The notes under the pieces were generated by a model. That model had not been told where the DNA came from and made no database searches. It saw only the letters and a list, made by a program, of their open reading frames with translations. Made by a program: the position numbers and the translations under genes. A stretch of 64,000 nt of DNA from Xanthobacteraceae bacterium. Lineage in GTDB: Bacteria; Pseudomonadota; Alphaproteobacteria; Rhizobiales; Xanthobacteraceae. The DNA is taken from assembly GCA_036522235.1 (NCBI GenBank), contig DATDGG010000191.1, forward strand, positions 5,466 to 69,465, in the 5' to 3' direction. Numbering within the stretch: position 1 is the stretch's first letter; every line of letters starts with the position of its first letter. Positions 16,729 to 62,438 of this stretch are shown piece by piece.

Positions 16729-17763
16729 TCATGCCGTTTCATGTGGGGCCAGCAAGGCGAGCGCCGTTGCAGGCGCACAATGTGATGCCCGGTCGCGTGC
16801 CTCCGGAGCGACATCAAGCATTGTGCCGAAGGCGATATGCTTGCGGCCCAGGCGCTGCGCGACCTCCCCCACGACCGCATCGCCGATGCCGGCCGCGACG
16901 ATCGGTGCGTCAGCAGTCAGGGTGCGGCTCGACAGGACGAGCCGCGCCCCGTCGACTACGGCCCGAATTTGCGCCTCGGCAAACCATCGTGCCAGGGCCG
17001 CCCACGCCTCATCGTCGGCACCCTGGGCATCGCACCCCACCATGCGCGCCAGTCGTGCCCGTGACGCCTCGACAGTCTTTGCCCGGCCATCGGCCGTTGC
17101 CATCTGATCGACCCCCTCGGGCAAGCTCCCAAGAATGCGATGGACGTCAGCCATGGTTGCGAAATACTCGTTGATCAGCGGCATCCAGTGGCCTGCGAAC
17201 GGGGCGCGGTCGGCAACCGCCATTACGAAGGTGCGCACCAGCCCCGTGTAAACCAGCTCTCCGGCCGCCAGGCGCTCCGCGTCCGTGTATCCGCGCGCCG
17301 CAACCGCCCCGTCAACGATCGGCACCAGATCGGTCGTGGTAGAACCCATGTCCACGAACAGTGCCACGCGCCGAACGCGAGCGACCAAGGAAGCGCTGGC
17401 GAACCAGTTGGCTGAGGCGATGTCTTCGACATGCTCACGAGCGTCCTGCGGCCGAATGAAGCCAGCCCGCCCGGCGTAGAGGGAGACCGCGTCAGGCGCG
17501 AGCTCGCGCACCGCCATCGTCGAGAGGCTTTCGACCCCCTCGATGCGGGATGAGAATGTATCTGCCAACTCGCCCGTCATCGTGACGACGTGGCGATGGG
17601 CGGTGCCAATCCGAGCTTTGGCTTCGGTGAAGGATTGCGCAAGCCGGTCCAGACCCAGGCGCAGCGGCGACGCGACCTGGATGGCGTCTACAACGCGACC
17701 GTTCTCCGCACGGGCGGCCTTGAGATGCGCCCCCCCGACGTCCCATCCAATGACGACTCCCAT
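16729..17763 (-). CDS. H4MPT-linked C1-transfer pathway protein (hydantoinase/oxoprolinase-like ASKHA fold)
   Basis: MGVVIGWDVGGAHLKAA... and DMGSTTTDLVPI phosphate-binding motifs. Context among H4MPT genes. Confidence 0.85.
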   Translation of the reverse strand: MGVVIGWDVGGAHLKAARAENGRVVDAIQVASPLRLGLDRLAQSFTEAKARIGTAHRHVVTMTGELADTFSSRIEGVESLSTMAVRELAPDAVSLYAGRAGFIRPQDAREHVEDIASANWFASASLVARVRRVALFVDMGSTTTDLVPIVDGAVAARGYTDAERLAAGELVYTGLVRTFVMAVADRAPFAGHWMPLINEYFATMADVHRILGSLPEGVDQMATADGRAKTVEASRARLARMVGCDAQGADDEAWAALARWFAEAQIRAVVDGARLVLSSRTLTADAPIVAAGIGDAVVGEVAQRLGRKHIAFGTMLDVAPEARDRASHCAPATALALLAPHETA

Positions 17764-30101: not shown

Positions 30102-30331
30102 AGCCCTCGTTGGCTGCGATCGCAGCTATGACGATTATCGGTTGATCGGCGAGTGGGGAATGGCTATGGGCATGATCGAGTTGATTGTGTCGGTATGCGT
30201 ACTTTCGCAGCCCAATCAATGCCAGGATCAACATCTCAGGTTTGCGTCAAGCCTGTCGGTCCGGCAGTGCGTCAGGAGCGCGCGCGCCCAATGTCGCGGC
30301 GCGAGTATGCGGATAGTTGGGAGGAATTTTG

Positions 30332-31168
30332 ATGCGCGCCGAATTGCGCGCGAAGCGCGATGCCTTTCTGAGCACGATAGGCTCCCGTCCTGTCGTCATG
30401 GGAATTCTGAATTTGACCCCGGACTCGTTCTCCGATGGAGGTCGGTTCCACACTTTCGATGCCGCCATCGCTCACGCAAAGACGATGGTCGCCCAGGGCT
30501 GTGACATCGTCGATATCGGTGGGGAGTCGACACGACCTGCGGCCACTCCTGTGCCTGAAGCGGATGAATTCGGACGCATCGAGCCGATCTTGATGGAATT
30601 GGCGCGCGTTCTCGACGCGCCGCTGTCGATCGATACTTACAAGTCCGCCGTCGCGGCGAGGGCCGTCGAGATCGGCGCGATCCTGGTCAACGACGTTTGG
30701 GGACTGCAAAAGGACCCAAGGATGGCCGACGTGGTCGCGGAAACGGAAGCGGCGGTCGTCATCATGCACAATCGGGCGGAGAGGGACGAGACAGTCGATA
30801 TTTTCGCTGACATTCGGCGCTTCTTCGATCGCTCGCTGGCGCTCGCGGCGAGGGCGGGCATACCGAGAGAATACCTTATCCTCGATCCCGGTGTGGGCTT
30901 CGGCAAGACCGCGCGCCAGAACGTCGAAGCCTTGGCGCGGATCCCCGATCTCAAGGAATACGGGCTGCCAATTCTTGTCGGCGCATCGCGCAAGACTTTT
31001 CTCGGCTCGCTGACCGGCGACGGCATTGAAGGCACTCTCGCCGGAACCCTAGCAGTCAGTCTTGCCGCAGCCGCCGGCGGCGCCTTGCTCTTCCGGATCC
31101 ACGACGTTGCCGAGCACGTCGCGGCTCTCAGGGTGTTCCAGACGATCCGCAACAGTGCCGGACATTGA
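30332..31168 (+). CDS. folP: Dihydropteroate synthase-family protein
   Basis: GGGAGGA SD 7 nt before the ATG at 30332. VMGILNLTPDSFSDGG, DIVDIGGESTRP and GASRKTFLG motifs. Confidence 0.9.
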   Translation: MRAELRAKRDAFLSTIGSRPVVMGILNLTPDSFSDGGRFHTFDAAIAHAKTMVAQGCDIVDIGGESTRPAATPVPEADEFGRIEPILMELARVLDAPLSIDTYKSAVAARAVEIGAILVNDVWGLQKDPRMADVVAETEAAVVIMHNRAERDETVDIFADIRRFFDRSLALAARAGIPREYLILDPGVGFGKTARQNVEALARIPDLKEYGLPILVGASRKTFLGSLTGDGIEGTLAGTLAVSLAAAAGGALLFRIHDVAEHVAALRVFQTIRNSAGH

Positions 31169-43921: not shown

Positions 43922-43941
43922 GCAGGTATTGTACTACCTGC
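43922..43941 (+). promoter_or_regulatory. Perfect 7-6-7 palindrome upstream of the fusion gene
   Basis: GCAGGTA-ttgtac-TACCTGC, 21-40 nt upstream of the ATG at 43962. Confidence 0.35.
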
Positions 43942-43961
43942 ACGGGTTGCGGAGCGCCACG

Positions 43962-45782
43962 ATGACCTTGTTGCTTGCGAGCGTGAGCAGCGTCGACGAG
44001 GCTGCGCTCGTCTGCGCTTGCGGCGCCGACGTGATCGACCTGAAGGATGCTTCGAAGGGTGCATTTGGAGCGGTTGCGCCCGACGTGCTGCGCGCAACTG
44101 TCGCAGCTGTTGGCGGCAGACGGCCTGTGAGCGCGGTCGCCGGCAGTCTCTCGATGGACCCGGACGTGATTGTAGCGGCAGTCGAAAGTGCGGCTCAGGC
44201 GGAGGTCGATTACGTCAAAGTCGGATTGTTTCCCGGACCGAGACAAAAGGAATGCATCCGTGCGCTGTCCTCACCGGCGCGCAAGACGAAAATCATCGGC
44301 GTAATGTTCGCCGACGGCGGGACCGACCTGACCCTGGTGCCGGTCATGGCCGAGTCCGGCTTCGCCGGGGCGATGCTGGACACCGCCGACAAAAGCAGCG
44401 GCCGGCTGCTCGACCACATTGATATCGCAGCGCTGCGGGACTTCGTCGGGCTGTGTCGGGAGCGCCGGCTGATGGTGGGTCTCGCAGGCTCATTGGAGGC
44501 GCCCGATGTTCCACGGCTGCTCTTGCTGGAACCCGACGTGCTCGGCTTCCGCGGTGCACTTTGCGTCAGGCACGACCGAACTCTTCGGATCGATCCCGAG
44601 TCGATCAGGATCATTCGTGAACTGATACCTTTCGATCCGCGCAGTGCCGCCAGGGAAGACCCGGGCGTGATGAAGGTGGATTACCGGCTTCTGGCGGCGA
44701 GGGGATATTCAGCCGATCCAAGCAAGGATGACGCCGCGACGGACCACATTATCGTCCGCGATTTCGTGCTGCGTGCTCGCGTCGGCGCTTATGCCAGTGA
44801 GCGCGAGAAGCCGCAGAATGTTCGGTTCAATGTTGACGTCAAGGTGCGCCGCACTGGCCATTCGGTCGAAGGCATGCGAGACGTGTTCTCGTACGATGTC
44901 ATCACCGACGGCATCAGGATCATCGTCACGCACGAGCATATCGTGTTTCTCGAGACGCTCGCCGAACGCGTTGCGATGTCGGTGCTTGCTCATCCGCGGG
45001 CCGTCAGTGTGATGGTGCGTGTCGAGAAGCTCGACGTTGGGTCGGGTGGCGTCGGCGTCGAAATCGTGCGGGCACGGCCGACTGATGTCGCAAAGATCCA
45101 GCATCTTTATCCTGCCGCGGCGAGACCGACGCAAACAAAAGCCGCTGAGCCGATGCACGAGCTGATTGGTCTGACAGTGGTCAAGCTCGGCGGAAGCCAC
45201 GCCTTCTCGGCGCATCTGAAGGACTGGATCGACGCGATCGCTCGTTGCGCAGGTCGCGTCGTTGTAGCGCCCGGCGGCGGCCCCTTTGCCGATGCAGTGC
45301 GGGAAGTGCAGCGGAAAATGGGACTTGATGATCGTGCGGCACACCACATGGCGCTGCTCGCCATGGATCAATATTGCTGCGCGCTCGCGAGTCTCGGACG
45401 GAGGCTCACTAAGGCGGCGTCTGCAACCGCCATCCGTCGCGTGCTGCTCGATGGCGGGGTGCCGGTCTGGTCGGCATCCAGAATGGTGCTGGGTGCAAAG
45501 GATATTCCATGGTCTTGGGACGTGACGAGTGACAGCCTTGCAGCTTGGCTCGCTGGCAGGATCGGCGCCAAACGCGTGCTGCTGGTCAAGCATGTGGAGC
45601 CGTCGGCTGCACTTGTCCACGCGAAGGATCTTGTCGCGCAAGGTATCGTTGATCCCGCGTTCCCGCGCTTCCTTGGCGAAAGCGGCGCCGAAGCCTTCAT
45701 TGCCGGAACGGCCGAGCATGCGGCGGCGGCCGTTGCCATGAGCAATGGCGGGATGGTTGGCGCTCGGATCGACTTGCGTTAA
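43962..45782 (+). CDS. Three-domain fusion: MfnB-like (5-formylfuran-3-yl)methyl phosphate synthase + dihydroneopterin aldolase (FolB) + amino-acid-kinase-family domain
   Basis: One uninterrupted frame. MTLLLASVSSVDEAAL..ADVIDLKDASKGAFGA (DUF556/MfnB). DHIIVRDFVLRARVGAYASEREKPQNVRFNVDV (FolB). LTVVKLGGSHAF...VVAPGGGPFAD (AA-kinase fold). Confidence 0.85.
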   Translation: MTLLLASVSSVDEAALVCACGADVIDLKDASKGAFGAVAPDVLRATVAAVGGRRPVSAVAGSLSMDPDVIVAAVESAAQAEVDYVKVGLFPGPRQKECIRALSSPARKTKIIGVMFADGGTDLTLVPVMAESGFAGAMLDTADKSSGRLLDHIDIAALRDFVGLCRERRLMVGLAGSLEAPDVPRLLLLEPDVLGFRGALCVRHDRTLRIDPESIRIIRELIPFDPRSAAREDPGVMKVDYRLLAARGYSADPSKDDAATDHIIVRDFVLRARVGAYASEREKPQNVRFNVDVKVRRTGHSVEGMRDVFSYDVITDGIRIIVTHEHIVFLETLAERVAMSVLAHPRAVSVMVRVEKLDVGSGGVGVEIVRARPTDVAKIQHLYPAAARPTQTKAAEPMHELIGLTVVKLGGSHAFSAHLKDWIDAIARCAGRVVVAPGGGPFADAVREVQRKMGLDDRAAHHMALLAMDQYCCALASLGRRLTKAASATAIRRVLLDGGVPVWSASRMVLGAKDIPWSWDVTSDSLAAWLAGRIGAKRVLLVKHVEPSAALVHAKDLVAQGIVDPAFPRFLGESGAEAFIAGTAEHAAAAVAMSNGGMVGARIDLR

Positions 45783-45807: not shown

Positions 45808-46359
45808 ATGGTCAAAGTCAAGACGCCGCGCTGGGGCTGGGCGCTCACCGGATCCGGGCATTTCTTCAAGGAATGCCTGGCCATGATTGGTCAACTCGAA
45901 GACACTGATCTGTTTGTCAGCAGAGCGGCTGCGGAGGTCGTCCGCATGTACAAGCAGGACCTTGTCTTGCCCAAATCGGCGCGCGTCTTCCGCGACACGA
46001 CCGCGAGCTCCCCGCCGGTGGGAAACTTCTACTACGGGGTTTATCACACGCTCGTTCTTGCGCCGGCGACGTCGAATACGGTGGCCAAATGCGTCTACGG
46101 CATTTCCGATAGTCTTGCGACCAATATGTTCGCGCAGGCAGGCAAGTGCCGCGTTCCCGCGATCGTTTTCGCTTGCGATACCGCGCCGGAGCTCGAAACC
46201 GAGGCGCCGAAAGGCACCGTCATGGTCTATCCGCGGCGCATCGATCTCGAGAATACCGAGCGACTGAAATCCTTCGATGAAACGGACGTCGTCGAATCCC
46301 TGACGGAACTCGAGCAGGCTTTGGCGCGCCGCAAGCGCGAGCTCGCAGTGCATGGTTGA
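45808..46359 (+). CDS. Archaeoflavoprotein AfpA-like flavoprotein (DmrB-type dihydromethanopterin reductase candidate)
   Basis: WALTGSGHFFKEC... and LAPATSNTVAKCVYGISDSLATNMF flavoprotein motifs. Cluster context. Confidence 0.75.
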   Translation: MVKVKTPRWGWALTGSGHFFKECLAMIGQLEDTDLFVSRAAAEVVRMYKQDLVLPKSARVFRDTTASSPPVGNFYYGVYHTLVLAPATSNTVAKCVYGISDSLATNMFAQAGKCRVPAIVFACDTAPELETEAPKGTVMVYPRRIDLENTERLKSFDETDVVESLTELEQALARRKRELAVHG

Positions 46360-47749
46360 GCGCATCCTCTTTCTCACCGGTCATCTCGCACGACCGCGGT
46401 TGGAGAAGGTTCTTGCAAGCCTTCACGACACGGAGTTCGAATGGTCGGTCCTTGATGTCGGCGTCAATGTTGCCGCCCTCATGACCGAGGCGATTGTCTC
46501 GCGCCGGCTGCCGCGCCCGATGAATGCCGGCCGTATCATGGTTCCAGGTCGCTGCCGCGCCGATCTCGATCGATTAACTGCCGAATTCGGCATCCGATTT
46601 GAGCGCGGCCCCGATGAGTTGAAGGACTTGCCGGCCTACTTCGGAAAGCGTGGCCGCGGCTTGGATCTTTCGCGTCAGGACATGCGCATCTTCGCCGAGA
46701 TCGTCGATGCTTCGGCACTGAGCGTCGATGCGATCCTTGCCCGCGCCGCAGCCATGCGCGAGGCGGGCGCCGACGTCATCGATCTCGGATGTCTGCCGGA
46801 TACCCCGTTCCCACATCTCGAAGACGCTGTGCGCGAGCTGAAAGCCGTCGGTCTTGGTGTCAGCGTCGACTCGGCCGCAACCGACGAACTACGCCGCGGG
46901 GGCAGGGCAGGGGCCGCCTTCCTGCTGAGTCTCACCGAAAATACACTCGACATCGCGAGCGAGACGGGCGCAACCCCGGTGCTCATTCCGGCAAGCCACG
47001 GCGATGTATCGTCGCTGCTGCGCGCGGCTGAGGCCGCGGACAGGCGGGGCATCTGCTCGATCCTTGATCCGGTTCTTGATCCTATCCATTTCGGCTTGAT
47101 CGCCTCGCTGGAACGCTACGCGCATGTCCGCCACAGGCTGCCGGACGCGGACATTCTCATGGGAACCGGCAATCTGACGGAACTCACCGACGCCGATTCC
47201 GGAGGCATAACCGCGACGCTCCTGGGCATCTGTTCGGAGCTTCATATCCGTAACGTTCTCGTCGTTCAAGTAAGCCCGCACACGCGCCGCACGATCCAGG
47301 AGCACGATGCGGCACGACGCATGATGTTTGTCGCTCGCGAAGACAGCAGTCTTCCAAAGGACTACGGTGGCGCGCTGGTGCAGCTGCACGATCGGATGCC
47401 GTTTCCAAATACGCCGCAGGAGATTGCCGAGCTCGCTACACAAGTCAAAGATGCCAATTTCCGCATCGAGATAGCCGATGATGGAATCCACGTTTATAGC
47501 CGCAACGGTTATCACCTTGCGCAGGATGCGCTCTCGCTTTTCTCCAGGCTTGGAATCGGTGACGACGCGGCCCATGCCTTCTATCTCGGGACCGAACTGA
47601 TGAAGGCGGAGATCGCGTGGCGACTTGGTAAGCGCTACGTTCAGGATGAGCCGCTCGATTGGGGTTGCGCTGTCGACCGGTTGGCCGAAGACCTGACGCG
47701 TCTGCGTGAGGCAGGACCCACGTTGCGCGGTCGGGCGTCCGAGGGCTGA
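46352..47749 (+). CDS. Dihydropteroate synthase-related (pterin-binding) protein of H4MPT biosynthesis
   Basis: 465 aa. N-terminal extra domain plus a pterin-binding barrel (ADVIDLGCLPDTPFPHLEDAV...SVDSAATDEL). Overlaps the previous gene by 8 nt. Confidence 0.8.
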   Translation: MVERILFLTGHLARPRLEKVLASLHDTEFEWSVLDVGVNVAALMTEAIVSRRLPRPMNAGRIMVPGRCRADLDRLTAEFGIRFERGPDELKDLPAYFGKRGRGLDLSRQDMRIFAEIVDASALSVDAILARAAAMREAGADVIDLGCLPDTPFPHLEDAVRELKAVGLGVSVDSAATDELRRGGRAGAAFLLSLTENTLDIASETGATPVLIPASHGDVSSLLRAAEAADRRGICSILDPVLDPIHFGLIASLERYAHVRHRLPDADILMGTGNLTELTDADSGGITATLLGICSELHIRNVLVVQVSPHTRRTIQEHDAARRMMFVAREDSSLPKDYGGALVQLHDRMPFPNTPQEIAELATQVKDANFRIEIADDGIHVYSRNGYHLAQDALSLFSRLGIGDDAAHAFYLGTELMKAEIAWRLGKRYVQDEPLDWGCAVDRLAEDLTRLREAGPTLRGRASEG

Positions 47750-47753
47750 ATCC

Positions 47754-48332
47754 ATGCCAATGATTCGCGAAACAATCTTGACGACGATCAACGGCGACGG
47801 CCGCGTACATATTGCACCGATCGGCATCATCGCAGATGGTGAGGGATGGATCATCGCGCCGTTCCGGCCATCGACGACGCTCGACAATTTGCGCACTGTA
47901 CCGTTTGCTGTCGCGAACTATTCCGATGACGTTCGCATCTTCGCAGGCTGCCTGACTGGACGTCTCGACTGGCCGACAACGATAGCTGACGAAGTGCCGG
48001 TGCCACGCCTTGCCCATGCGCTCGCCCATGCTGAGCTCGCCGTAACTCGTGTGACGGAGGACGAGCAAAGGCCGCGTTTCCATTGCCGTGTGGTGCGTCT
48101 TCTGTCGCACGCGCCGTTCGAAGGATTCAACCGCGCTAAAGCTGCCGTTGTCGAAGCCGCAATACTCGTCAGCCGGTTGAATCTCCTCCCGAGAGAGAAG
48201 ATCGAGAAGGAGATTGCCTATCTTGAAATTGCTGTGCACAAGACCGCCGGAGTGGCCGAAGGACAGGCATGGAACTGGCTGATCGAGAAGGTCCGCGCCC
48301 ACTACGCGGACGCAGACAAGAGGTGTTCCTAG
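47754..48332 (+). CDS. DUF447-family (FMN-binding split-barrel-like) H4MPT cluster protein
   Basis: MPMIRETILTTINGDGRVHIAPIGII... Start lies 5 nt after the previous stop. Confidence 0.75.
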   Translation: MPMIRETILTTINGDGRVHIAPIGIIADGEGWIIAPFRPSTTLDNLRTVPFAVANYSDDVRIFAGCLTGRLDWPTTIADEVPVPRLAHALAHAELAVTRVTEDEQRPRFHCRVVRLLSHAPFEGFNRAKAAVVEAAILVSRLNLLPREKIEKEIAYLEIAVHKTAGVAEGQAWNWLIEKVRAHYADADKRCS

Positions 48333-51042: not shown

Positions 51043-51768
51043 TCAGTGTGGCTGGCCTTGCGCTTTCAGCATCCGCTGTCGGTAATTCTCCCAGGGGCGA
51101 TCGGCATCGAAGTTCTCCCTCGCGTTGGTCGTGAGCTCGGCATCGTCCAGAGCCACAAGATTGGCGCCCATGGATATGGCTGCAGCCTGCGCCCGCGCGT
51201 CGATGTTGGTGTAGAGGGTGCGAACCGTCGCTTCTTTCATGGAGCGCCCGACAACCGTCTCGCCATGCCCCCGCATCAGCACGACCGGATTGTTCGCAAG
51301 CTTCGCGGCCAATGCTTTTCCCAGCGCCGAATTGAGCACCAGCATTCCGCGTTCGGTGGCCGAGCCATACGCCTCACGAACTTCGAACAGCGGAGTCTCT
51401 TTGGGCAAGAAGCCCGCCTGAGCGATCACCGGCCGCAGCGGCGTGCCGGTCAGGCCGAAGGGAATCACCGCCAGGTCGTGCGTATGGATGACGGATTGGA
51501 CATCCGCGCGCGCCTTATAGACCTCGCAGTGGATGTAGCGTTCGCCATTGAGCCGCGGCGCGTTCGGCATCACCGGCTTACAATCGAGGTCCAGCTCGAC
51601 AATATCGGCCCGCGACACAAGCGCGGGCGGCATGGCCCTCGGCATGAAGAAATGGCCAGGGTCGGTTGCGGACCGCACGGTCACGTGCCCGAAACTGTCG
51701 AGTATGCCCTCACTGGCGAGAATGTGACTGGCGGTGATGAGATCCTCAATTCTCGTGTCGTTCGAATC
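51043..51768 (-). repeat. Inverted duplication, arm 1 (mature part of the aldolase gene)
   Basis: The reverse complement aligns base-for-base with 61716-62438. By eye about 9 of 10 positions match over several hundred nt. Confidence 0.85.
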
Positions 51769-51864
51769 GATGCCTTGCGGCGTTTGCGATCTGGCCTGCG
51801 GCGTAATCGCCATGACCGACATCATGGCGATTGCGAGCTTAAGAGTGATTGAAGGCTTTGCCAT
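51043..51864 (-). CDS. Class II aldolase/adducin-domain protein with N-terminal signal-like segment (copy 1)
   Basis: GGGAGGAAGAGAAG-ATG start. MAKPSITLKLAIAMMSVMAITPQA. ILDSFGHVTVRS, VIHTHD and MRGHG metal-site motifs. Confidence 0.88.
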   Translation of the reverse strand: MAKPSITLKLAIAMMSVMAITPQARSQTPQGIDSNDTRIEDLITASHILASEGILDSFGHVTVRSATDPGHFFMPRAMPPALVSRADIVELDLDCKPVMPNAPRLNGERYIHCEVYKARADVQSVIHTHDLAVIPFGLTGTPLRPVIAQAGFLPKETPLFEVREAYGSATERGMLVLNSALGKALAAKLANNPVVLMRGHGETVVGRSMKEATVRTLYTNIDARAQAAAISMGANLVALDDAELTTNARENFDADRPWENYRQRMLKAQGQPH

Positions 51865-51886
51865 CTTCTCTTCCTCCCTGCGTGCC

Positions 51887-53431
51887 TTAGGAATTTGACT
51901 GACTCGTCTCCTTGGGGACGGTATTTTTGCCTTCGGGCTTCTGCGCGGGCGACATGCTTTTATAAAGCGTCCAGACCAAAATAATGCCTGCTGCGGCAAG
52001 GATCGCGGCGCTTACCGGATGCTGGATGAAAATCGTTGGATCACCTCGCGACACGATGAGGGAGCGTCGCAGATGCTGCTCCATGGCGGGGCCGAGAACG
52101 AGGCCTATGAGCAATGGCGCGGGCGAAAATTGCAGAAGCCGCATCAAATACCCGACGCCTCCGAAAACAAGCATCATCAGAACATCGGTGGTTGATTGCC
52201 GAATGCTGTAGACGCCGATGCACATGAAGACGAGAACGGCTGGGAATAGCAGCTGGAACGGAATTGTTAGAAGCCGGACCCACAAACCGATGAACGGGAC
52301 GTGCCAGATGACGAGTATGATATTCCCAATGATGAAACTTACCAGCAGGCCCCAGAACAGATCCGGGTGAGAAGTGATGAAATCCGGGCCCACCGAAATG
52401 CCCTTCACCGTCAGGGCTGCCAGCATGACGGCCATGATCGGGTCGGCTGGAATGCCGAGCGTGAGGGTCGGAACAAATCCGGTCTGACAGGCAGCATTGG
52501 CTGCAGCTTCCGGTGCAACGACACCTTCGATCGCACCATGACCGAAACGCCCAGGCTCTCTCGCGACTTGCTTTTCGATTGCATAACCCATGATCGACGC
52601 AAGTACTGGCCCGGCCCCCGGCAGCAAGCCGAGCCCCGCGCCCACACTGGTGCCGCGTAAAATCGCGCGCCACGACAGGGCGAATTCGTCGCGCGAAGGC
52701 AGCAACGAACGCCAAGTGATGCTCGAAGGGCGAACCACCGGCGCAGTGAGGTTGCCGGCGTTGACTATGATCTCGCTGATGCCGAATAGCCCCATTGCGA
52801 TGACGCCAATTCCGATCCCATCGAGCAAGGTCGTGAGCCCAAAGGTGAAACGCGCAACCCCGGAAGTAACATCGATCCCCACCAAACCAATCAACATGCC
52901 AAGGATGACGGAGATGAAAGACTTGATTGGCGACCCGCGCGCCAGCACAGCTGCACCCGTCATGCCGAGCACGACGAGTGCGAAATACTCCGGAGATTGG
53001 AACGTCAGCGCGACTGAAGCGAGAGGGGGCGCGAACAGCGCCAGCACCACAATTCCCACGAAACTGCCGCACAGCGAGGCCATGGTCGTCATGAAAAGGG
53101 CGACGCCGGCACGACCCTTCTGAGCCATCGGGTATCCGTCGAGGCATTCGATCGCCGATACCGTGTGTGGAATGTTCAGGAGAATGGCGCCGGTGACCGC
53201 GCCATAAACAGCGCCGTAGTATAGGCCGGCGAGCATGATCAGACCGGTTGCCGGCGGCACATGATAGGTCACCGGAAGCAGAATTGAGACTGCGGCGACG
53301 GAACCCACGCCGGGCAGCACGCCGAGTAGATTGCCGAGCGTGACGCCAAGAAAGCAATAGAACAGATTCTGCCAGCTGCCGGCTTCCTGCCAACCTAGTA
53401 GAAGATGGTCGAGCAGTTCCATGATCACCAC
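51887..53431 (-). CDS. tctA: Tripartite tricarboxylate transporter large permease TctA
   Basis: 514 aa, about 12 TM segments, TctA-like throughout. Confidence 0.93.
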   Translation of the reverse strand: MVIMELLDHLLLGWQEAGSWQNLFYCFLGVTLGNLLGVLPGVGSVAAVSILLPVTYHVPPATGLIMLAGLYYGAVYGAVTGAILLNIPHTVSAIECLDGYPMAQKGRAGVALFMTTMASLCGSFVGIVVLALFAPPLASVALTFQSPEYFALVVLGMTGAAVLARGSPIKSFISVILGMLIGLVGIDVTSGVARFTFGLTTLLDGIGIGVIAMGLFGISEIIVNAGNLTAPVVRPSSITWRSLLPSRDEFALSWRAILRGTSVGAGLGLLPGAGPVLASIMGYAIEKQVAREPGRFGHGAIEGVVAPEAAANAACQTGFVPTLTLGIPADPIMAVMLAALTVKGISVGPDFITSHPDLFWGLLVSFIIGNIILVIWHVPFIGLWVRLLTIPFQLLFPAVLVFMCIGVYSIRQSTTDVLMMLVFGGVGYLMRLLQFSPAPLLIGLVLGPAMEQHLRRSLIVSRGDPTIFIQHPVSAAILAAAGIILVWTLYKSMSPAQKPEGKNTVPKETSQSNS

Positions 53432-61523: not shown

Positions 61524-61619
61524 ACTTACTAACGAATTTCATCGTCTCGATGCTGCGAAAAGCTGCGCGCCGAACCGAGGTTGGACGACGTGGCTTCTCG
61601 GCCGCCAAGGAAAAGCGCC

Positions 61620-62438
61620 ATGCTTCGTCAAATGATTGCAGTGAAAATGCTGTCAGCGGGTCTTGGACTCGCCAGCGCCTGTATCGCGGCCCAGGCGCAG
61701 ACGATCACGGCGACAGATTCGAACGAGAGCAGAATTGAGGATATCATCACCGCCAGTCACATTCTCGCCAATGAGGGCATACTCGACAGTTTCGGGCATG
61801 TGACGGTGCGTTCCGCAACCGACCCTAGCCACTTCTTCATGCCGAGGGCGATGCCCCCCGCGCTTGTGTCACGGGCCGATATTGTCGAGCTGGACCTCGA
61901 TTGTAAGCCGGTGATGCCGAACGCGCCGCGGCTGAACGGCGAACGCTACATCCACTGCGAGGTCTATAAGGCGCGCGCGGATGTCCAATCCGTCATTCAT
62001 ACGCATGACCTGGCGGTGATCCCCTTCGGCCTGACGGGCACGCCACTGCGGCCGGTGATCGCTCAGGCCGGCTTCTTGCCCAAAGAGACCCCGCTGTTCG
62101 AAGTTCGTGAGACGTATGGCTCGGCCACCGAACGCGGGATGCTGGTCCTCAATTCGGCGCTCGGAAAAGCATTGTCCGCGAAGCTGGCGAATAATCCGAT
62201 CGTGCTGATGCGGGGGCATGGCGAGACGGTTGTCGGGCGCTCGGCAAAAGAGGCCACTGTCCGCACGCTGTACACCAATATCGACGCTCGCGCCCAAGCT
62301 GCCGCGATGACGCTGAGTTCCAAATTTGTCGTCCTGGACGATGCCGAGCTGGCAGCCGTCGACAAGGAAGAGAGGCCCGATCGGCCATGGGAAAACTACA
62401 AACAGCGCATGTTGAAAGCGCAAGGGACGTTGCGTTGA
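61620..62438 (+). CDS. Class II aldolase/adducin-domain protein with Sec-type signal peptide (copy 2)
   Basis: MLRQMIAVKMLSAGLGLASACIAAQA|QT. The mature part is about 90 percent identical to the protein encoded at 51043-51864. Confidence 0.88.
   Translation: MLRQMIAVKMLSAGLGLASACIAAQAQTITATDSNESRIEDIITASHILANEGILDSFGHVTVRSATDPSHFFMPRAMPPALVSRADIVELDLDCKPVMPNAPRLNGERYIHCEVYKARADVQSVIHTHDLAVIPFGLTGTPLRPVIAQAGFLPKETPLFEVRETYGSATERGMLVLNSALGKALSAKLANNPIVLMRGHGETVVGRSAKEATVRTLYTNIDARAQAAAMTLSSKFVVLDDAELAAVDKEERPDRPWENYKQRMLKAQGTLR
61716..62438 (+). repeat. Inverted duplication, arm 2
   Basis: Aligns with the reverse complement of 51043-51768. Confidence 0.85.

Follow-up and report, generated by a model that had tools for sequence, protein, structure and literature searches.

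A probable young in-frame fusion of MfnB-like, FolB-like and MfnE-like kinase genes in a Xanthobacteraceae methylotrophy island

Introduction

Can three enzymes of cofactor synthesis, known as products of separate genes, be one polypeptide, and if so, how did they become one? The question is raised by a single open reading frame (ORF) of 606 codons in a Xanthobacteraceae bacterium (GenBank assembly GCA_036522235.1). The ORF lies within a stretch of 64,000 nucleotides, hereafter the window (contig DATDGG010000191.1, positions 5,466 to 69,465 of the forward strand; all coordinates below are those of the window), and joins an MfnB-like domain, a FolB-like domain and an amino-acid-kinase-fold domain resembling MfnE. 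We conclude that it is very probably a genuine and evolutionarily young in-frame fusion of abutting genes, brought about by the loss of a stop codon. The architecture is already known from databases, and the window holds an independently arisen instance of it.

Results

A reading of the letters made without database searches (the sequence-only reading) had proposed one uninterrupted frame of 606 residues with these three modules, and our analysis bears this out. The open frame extends from 43929 to 45782 without an internal stop, encoding 617 amino acids from a TTG or 606 from ATG 43962, and profile matches begin at residues 1-4 counted from the ATG. All three Pfam domains exceed their curated cut-offs, close to the coordinates first proposed: 4HFCP_synth (PF04476) matches residues 4-216 (1.2e-61; 208.8 bits versus a cut-off of 22.4; profile positions 1-225 of 228), FolB (PF02152) residues 263-368 (1.3e-16; 61.5 versus 31.8 bits) and AA_kinase (PF00696) residues 404-546 (1.1e-11; 45.4 versus 24.9 bits).

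The origin of the frame can be read from its relatives. In a search of 5.8 billion proteins, the best 120 matches were without exception MfnB+FolB proteins with two domains (about 385-399 amino acids), at most 87% identical to the window protein. In the closest relatives (at most 87-89% identity over residues 1-390 and over the kinase part), an MfnB+FolB gene of 390-396 amino acids and a separate kinase gene of 209 amino acids lie in the same frame. The 606 residues correspond to the 390 amino acids, a stop, five spacer codons, a second stop and the 209 amino acids of these relatives, both stops being sense codons in the window, and homology runs collinear and unbroken across the junction, without indels. 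In each of the nine same-genus genomes with mch, the match to residues 1-606 is interrupted by a single TGA, at the junction GAG TGA ATG (...AAE TGA ATG...). Because this TGA directly abuts the ATG, the two genes are in frame by construction; programmed read-through of the TGA, or selection for an in-frame layout in the relatives, was considered and found unnecessary for that reason.

Two codons of the window thus stand where relatives have stops, CAA (Q391) and CCG (P397). The first is TAG in the closest metagenomic relatives (L013, L014, L027, L028 and L051), the second is TGA in the nine same-genus genomes. The window tail, Q-T-K-A-A-E, agrees with Q-(S/P)-K-A-A-E, the consensus of the genus, and with Q-A-K-A-A-E in P0002, a protein from an independent sample in which Gln stands in place of the TAG and the terminal stop persists, whereas tails have drifted in relatives with the upstream TAG (AIAAK, AKGAR, AEAAE). 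The conserved tail in the window, set against the drifted ones, indicates that CAA is ancestral and that the change of TGA to CCG is the only event needed. A separate observation concerns the metagenome contigs with the upstream TAG, in two of which the old terminal TGA has decayed (to CGA in L027 and TGG in L028); there, one reversion of the TAG would yield the same triple fusion by another route.

We propose that the ancestor had an already fused MfnB-FolB gene ending in TGA, followed directly by the ATG of an MfnE-like kinase gene. A TGA abutting the next ATG is the layout typical of translational coupling. In the window lineage the TGA would have become a proline codon, CCG, letting ribosomes read on into the kinase, and the product would be one polypeptide of ~65 kDa with three independently folding domains on flexible linkers. 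While the ORF and its mutational path are observed in the DNA, translation as one chain is what we infer from them. No internal promoter or terminator was found at the junction in a consensus scan.

The fusion of the first two domains is widespread. Among the top 150 matches of an exhaustive search of 1.84 billion representatives, 85 were MfnB+FolB, seven FolB+kinase and two triple, making MfnB+FolB the dominant architecture among the best representative clusters. The belief of the sequence-only reading that in model clusters these are separate genes holds for some genomes only (G026, for example), while among relatives at large the MfnB+FolB fusion is commonest. A search with the kinase region returned FolB+kinase proteins, many kinase+Hydantoinase_A proteins, one kinase+PabB protein (P0139) and one full triple (P0128), which is found on four contigs in the same island context. 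Of the two triples from the exhaustive search, P0247 was rejected: the C-terminus of its FolB part is out of frame, which probably reflects a frameshift in the gene call from a metagenome.

The triple architecture looked unique after the first two protein searches, an impression overturned by a scan of GTDB genomes. With P0128 as query and one genome per GTDB species, we found the three domains, confirmed by Pfam, in one open frame of 608-613 amino acids in 23 Mesorhizobium species, among them M. mediterraneum, M. tianshanense, M. temperatum, M. delmotii and M. muleiense. RefSeq holds such proteins, for instance WP_095489026.1 (M. mediterraneum, 608 amino acids) and WP_081738706.1 (M. ciceri, 609 amino acids; in a 90% cluster of 131 members), under the names '(5-formylfuran-3-yl)methyl phosphate synthase', 'dihydroneopterin aldolase' and 'FolB domain-containing protein'. 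Naming the triple proteins after a single domain hides their multifunctional architecture. The novelty implied by the sequence-only reading, which had itself allowed that a common and already annotated architecture would undo it, is accordingly lost: MfnB+FolB is the commonest form, and the triple is annotated in RefSeq for many Mesorhizobium species. We found no paper describing the three-domain architecture in the accessible literature.

The Mesorhizobium triples are similar in length to the window protein, have its three Pfam domains in identical order and share its surroundings, with a gene for a binding protein of a pyrroloquinoline quinone (PQQ)-associated ATP-binding cassette (ABC) system upstream and flavoprotein, DUF6513 and DUF447 genes downstream. 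They differ in belonging to the family Phyllobacteriaceae, in being only 46-52% identical to the window protein, and in having a longer FolB-kinase linker of about 40 amino acids; none of the members that were translated and read (L092, L103 and P0243) has a junction Met. A maximum-likelihood tree built from the MfnB-FolB portion of 94 sequences requires, by its starred branches, the triple state to have arisen independently three times or more: in the Mesorhizobium clade (99% support), in the P0128 lineage and in the window, which lies with 96-100% support inside a clade of unfused relatives from its own genus. This tree did not bear out common descent of the window and Mesorhizobium fusions. 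The placement suggests that the window fusion is young and lineage-specific, having arisen independently and probably recently.

Could the ORF be an error of assembly or consensus, with the FolB and kinase parts separated by a stop in the true genome (TAA or TAG at 45132-45134, for instance) and hence encoded by the usual two genes? The five metagenomic TAG codons fall exactly at the CAA of the window, and a single base separates CAA from TAA. Several further points weigh against a genuine fusion: the assembly is fragmented into 612 contigs; the window protein is present on a single contig in a collection of 15 billion proteins; and the fused junction peptide, though among the search patterns, was seen in no other metagenome contig. 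The junction was seen in no second sample either. However, CAA differs from the TAG of the relatives at two positions, and Gln at this codon is shared with the independent P0002 and the genus consensus. The five codons that follow still encode the conserved T-K-A-A-E, while this tail has drifted wherever TAG is present, and homology continues without an indel across the junction. No single base change makes CCG a stop, which renders a sequencing error unlikely; altogether, we regard this explanation as highly improbable.

A different objection accepts the fused ORF in the DNA and takes it for a neutral or slightly harmful accident, with the kinase mainly made separately (209 amino acids) from ATG 45153 and the 65-kDa product minor or inactive. 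This ATG is indeed kept at the exact start position of the relatives' kinase, with a weak GAG (45147-45149) 3 nucleotides upstream, so that some separate kinase could still be made, a further point that counts against our interpretation; moreover, the fusion is in one genome only and thus has no record of maintenance. Yet the internal ATG has no good Shine-Dalgarno sequence, as the sequence-only reading had noted. The same weak GAG is present in the relatives, which probably rely on termination-reinitiation at TGAATG, a route closed once the stop is lost, and elongating ribosomes would occlude an internal start. Besides, the Mesorhizobium triples, kept across 23 species and without a junction Met in the members read, imply that a covalently fused kinase can work, and FolB+kinase fusions occur in other lineages. 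We therefore consider the accident unlikely, and a genuine fusion by stop-codon loss remains our interpretation.

A mis-binned contig was also suspected, since the first 24 same-genus genomes gave no match. It was ruled out: among 60 same-genus genomes, nine have mch as well as an identically arranged orthologue of 70-77% identity, the window falls inside this group in the tree, and a flanking aldehyde dehydrogenase has an 82% identical same-genus orthologue. The tetrahydromethanopterin (H4MPT) pathway is patchy in this large genus, mch being found in nine of 60 other sampled genomes and the first 24 sampled being without MfnB and the kinase; such patchiness points to repeated loss or to transfer of the island.

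Given a real ORF, the identity of its domains becomes the next issue. The best-scoring named NCBIfam family for the kinase domain is MfnE (NF040622; 8.2e-22), in agreement with the earlier suggestion that it resembles the MfnE family, and JGI labels the mates in its 90% cluster '5-(aminomethyl)-3-furanmethanol phosphate kinase'. The domain is also associated genomically with homologues of MfnB, to which it is fused, and of MfnF, a Hydantoinase_A gene of the window. None of the equivalog cut-offs was reached: the kinase domain scored 77.9 versus 300 bits for MfnE; the MfnB domain 114.2 versus 304 (NF002575), 110.9 versus 341 (NF002573) and 258.9 versus 297 bits (NF002576); and the FolB domain 36.3 versus 72.15 bits for housekeeping folB (TIGR00525). 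These shortfalls place the domains in bacterial subfamilies, apart from the archaeal and housekeeping equivalogs that were curated.

In a search of its own genome, the MfnB and kinase domains are each single-copy, which, like the otherwise intact pathway in the window, counts in favour of a genuine fusion. The fused FolB domain (65.7 bits) has a counterpart in a canonical folP-folB pair on contig C586, whose FolB scores 119 bits, and BLAST detected no similarity between the two FolB sequences. The canonical pair elsewhere and the lack of BLAST similarity indicate that the fused FolB is a dedicated, divergent paralogue.

Judged by alignment, catalytic residues are retained in all three domains. 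The MfnB-like domain matches MJ1099 (PDB 4rc1; 1.2e-21), and its D26, K28, K86, D140 and K144 align (phmmer) with D25, K27, K85, D151 and K155 of that enzyme. K155 of MJ1099 has been called catalytic (PMC11365854). Wang et al. 2015 are reported to have assigned catalytic roles to D25, K27, K85 and D151 as well. D26 and K28 form the 'DLKD' lysine region, and the kinase motif 'VVKLGGS' occupies residues 406-412. By sequence, the FolB-like domain matches the dihydroneopterin aldolases PDB 3v9o and 1dhn, and E280, Y311, E331 and K356 align with E22, Y54, E74 and K100 of the Staphylococcus aureus enzyme (1dhn), which are the active-site residues of that enzyme. The kinase domain matches an aspartate/glutamate/uridylate kinase (PDB 7qrh; 3.2e-16). 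An AlphaFold2 model, built on a 29-row alignment in which Y311 and E331 are almost invariant, has three confident domains, while the linkers at residues 237-258 and 377-399 fall below 50 in predicted local distance difference test (pLDDT) and the predicted template-modelling score (pTM) is 0.45. In this model the 606-residue protein looks like beads on a string. The positions of all features are collected in Table 1.

Table 1. Features of the fused gene and of associated genes in the window (aa, amino acids)
Feature	Position	Strand	Evidence
Shine-Dalgarno-like GGAG, 7 nt before ATG 43962	43951..43954	+	Read in sequence
Fused ORF, MfnB-like + FolB-like + MfnE-like kinase, 606 aa plus stop	43962..45782	+	ORF, Pfam/NCBIfam, PDB matches, AlphaFold2
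4-HFC-P synthase (MfnB/Orf22-like) TIM-barrel domain, aa 1-230	43962..44651	+	Pfam PF04476, PDB 4rc1
Linker 1, aa 237-258, predicted disordered	44670..44735	+	pLDDT <50
FolB-like domain (dihydroneopterin aldolase fold), aa 259-376	44736..45089	+	Pfam PF02152; PDB 3v9o, 1dhn
Linker 2, the old gene boundary, aa 377-403	45090..45170	+	Junction alignments; pLDDT <50 over aa 377-399
Q391, CAA	45132-45134	+	TAG in closest metagenome clade
P397, CCG	45150-45152	+	TGA in all nine same-genus genomes
M398, ATG	45153-45155	+	Start codon of separate kinase gene in relatives
MfnE/Orf21-like amino-acid-kinase-fold domain, aa 398-606 plus stop; separate 209-aa gene in relatives	45153..45782	+	PF00696, NF040622, PDB 7qrh
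AfpA/DmrX-like flavoprotein, downstream operon gene	45808..46359	+	Pfam/NCBIfam
DUF6513 / dihydropteroate-synthase-like protein (TIGR00284), downstream operon gene	46352..47749	+	Pfam/NCBIfam
DUF447, downstream operon gene	47706..48332	+	Profile match
MfnF/Orf9-like Hydantoinase_A gene	16729-17763		Profile match

Discussion

By homology, the MfnB-like domain would condense two glyceraldehyde-3-phosphates to 4-(hydroxymethyl)-2-furancarboxaldehyde phosphate (4-HFC-P), the furan precursor of methylofuran, and the kinase domain would turn F1-P, the aminomethyl-furan-methanol phosphate, into F1-PP by a further phosphorylation. Cleavage of 7,8-dihydroneopterin to 6-hydroxymethyl-dihydropterin would fall to the FolB paralogue, which on the simplest view provides the pterin of dephospho-H4MPT (dH4MPT). 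The polypeptide may thus join two steps of methylofuran synthesis, ring formation and the second phosphorylation, with an aldolase-type step, and it is plausible that one chain links methylofuran and H4MPT synthesis. Since both cofactors serve the formaldehyde-oxidation pathway encoded around the gene, their co-production would be expected. The fusion itself probably changes little: it would fix at 1:1 a production ratio to which translational coupling had already come close.

The surrounding window holds a full methylotrophy island. In addition to the MfnF-like gene, it encodes a RimK-like ligase of the MyfB type, mch, mtdB, fhcA, fhcD, fhcC, xoxF, a PQQ-associated ABC system, a second FolP-like gene, and the fused gene with its three downstream operon genes.

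Several known systems resemble the fused gene. Closest is the two-gene form of Xanthobacteraceae and soil metagenomes, which has the same operon and the same frame and is collinear over the 606 residues, but carries one or two stops (TAG and/or TGA) before the kinase ATG where the window has CAA and CCG. Bacterial Orf22, Orf21 and Orf9 have been equated with MfnB, MfnE and MfnF, respectively (Hemmann et al. 2021; PMC8141765). Orf22 and Orf21 from the 'archaeal-like' methylotrophy cluster of Methylorubrum extorquens belong to the same families and gene neighbourhood as the window domains but, unlike the fusion, are described as separate proteins; no statement on a FolB domain in Orf22 was found in the accessible literature. 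The island of Methylosinus trichosporium has the order orf19-orf20-afpA-orf21-orf22 (PMC3615186), which is the gene order of the window read in reverse. The archaeal enzymes are more distant. Fold and catalytic residues of MfnB (MJ1099; PDB 4rc1 and 4u9p) are conserved in the window, and archaeal MfnE is the best NCBIfam match of its kinase; the window domains, however, score far below the archaeal cut-offs (114 versus 304 and 78 versus 300 bits), and the archaeal enzymes are stand-alone. For the pterin step, archaea use MptD and not a FolB-fold aldolase.

The same kinase is also found in other fusions, which differ from the window in partners and domain order: FolB+kinase of about 350 amino acids, kinase+Hydantoinase_A (MfnF-like) of about 550 amino acids, and kinase+PabB in Methylogaea oryzae. 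These sequences show a kinase that tolerates fusion partners at either terminus, and recurrent fusion among the genes of this cofactor operon. The kinase+Hydantoinase_A form (among P0139-P0241) occurs in many metagenome proteins of Acidobacteriota or Vicinamibacterales type, and the partner in M. oryzae is the aminodeoxychorismate synthase PabB.

The choice of partners raises the question of what the FolB paralogue does. Its partners consistently come from methylofuran synthesis: of the 150 best representative clusters, 85 join it to MfnB and seven to the MfnE-like kinase, and the combination with both has arisen independently three times or more. The kinase for its part is also fused to MfnF-like proteins. 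Among the fusions seen, none was to a dedicated H4MPT-biosynthesis protein (dihydropteroate-synthase-like, AfpA or DUF447), and one, kinase+PabB (P0139), lies outside methylofuran synthesis. Recurrent fusions of this kind are 'Rosetta-stone' evidence for a close working relationship between the divergent FolB paralogue and the methylofuran enzymes. Going further, the paralogue might be, or might also be, an unrecognized enzyme of methylofuran biosynthesis rather than, or not only, an aldolase of the pterin branch, although we think this unlikely. In the unfused G026 the folB paralogue lies between mfnB and mfnE, a position that would fit, as an equally tentative suggestion, a bacterial step between 4-HFC-P and F1-P. 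A search of the literature for FolB or MJ1099 together with methanopterin returned nothing relevant.

The locus is of modest importance in itself, but shows, in a clean case that can be dated, how a multi-domain protein forms from operon neighbours whose stop and start codons abut. Three separate genes, an MfnB-FolB gene with a coupled kinase gene, and one continuous chain make up a series whose last step was reached at least three times. The fusions could guide experiments on the bacterial steps of methylofuran and dH4MPT biosynthesis.

Two minor observations concern other genes of the window. Just after fhcA, fhcD and fhcC lies the second FolP-like gene, a full-length Pterin_bind match (30317-31168, + strand; 8e-74), which may be an island-specific dihydropteroate synthase paralogue, the canonical folP being the one on contig C586. 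Farther downstream, two Aldolase_II genes in inverted orientation (51043-51999, - strand; 61581-62438, + strand) flank an array that encodes a TctA/TctC transporter, a lyase, an aldehyde dehydrogenase, a CoA-ligase and an enoyl-CoA hydratase.

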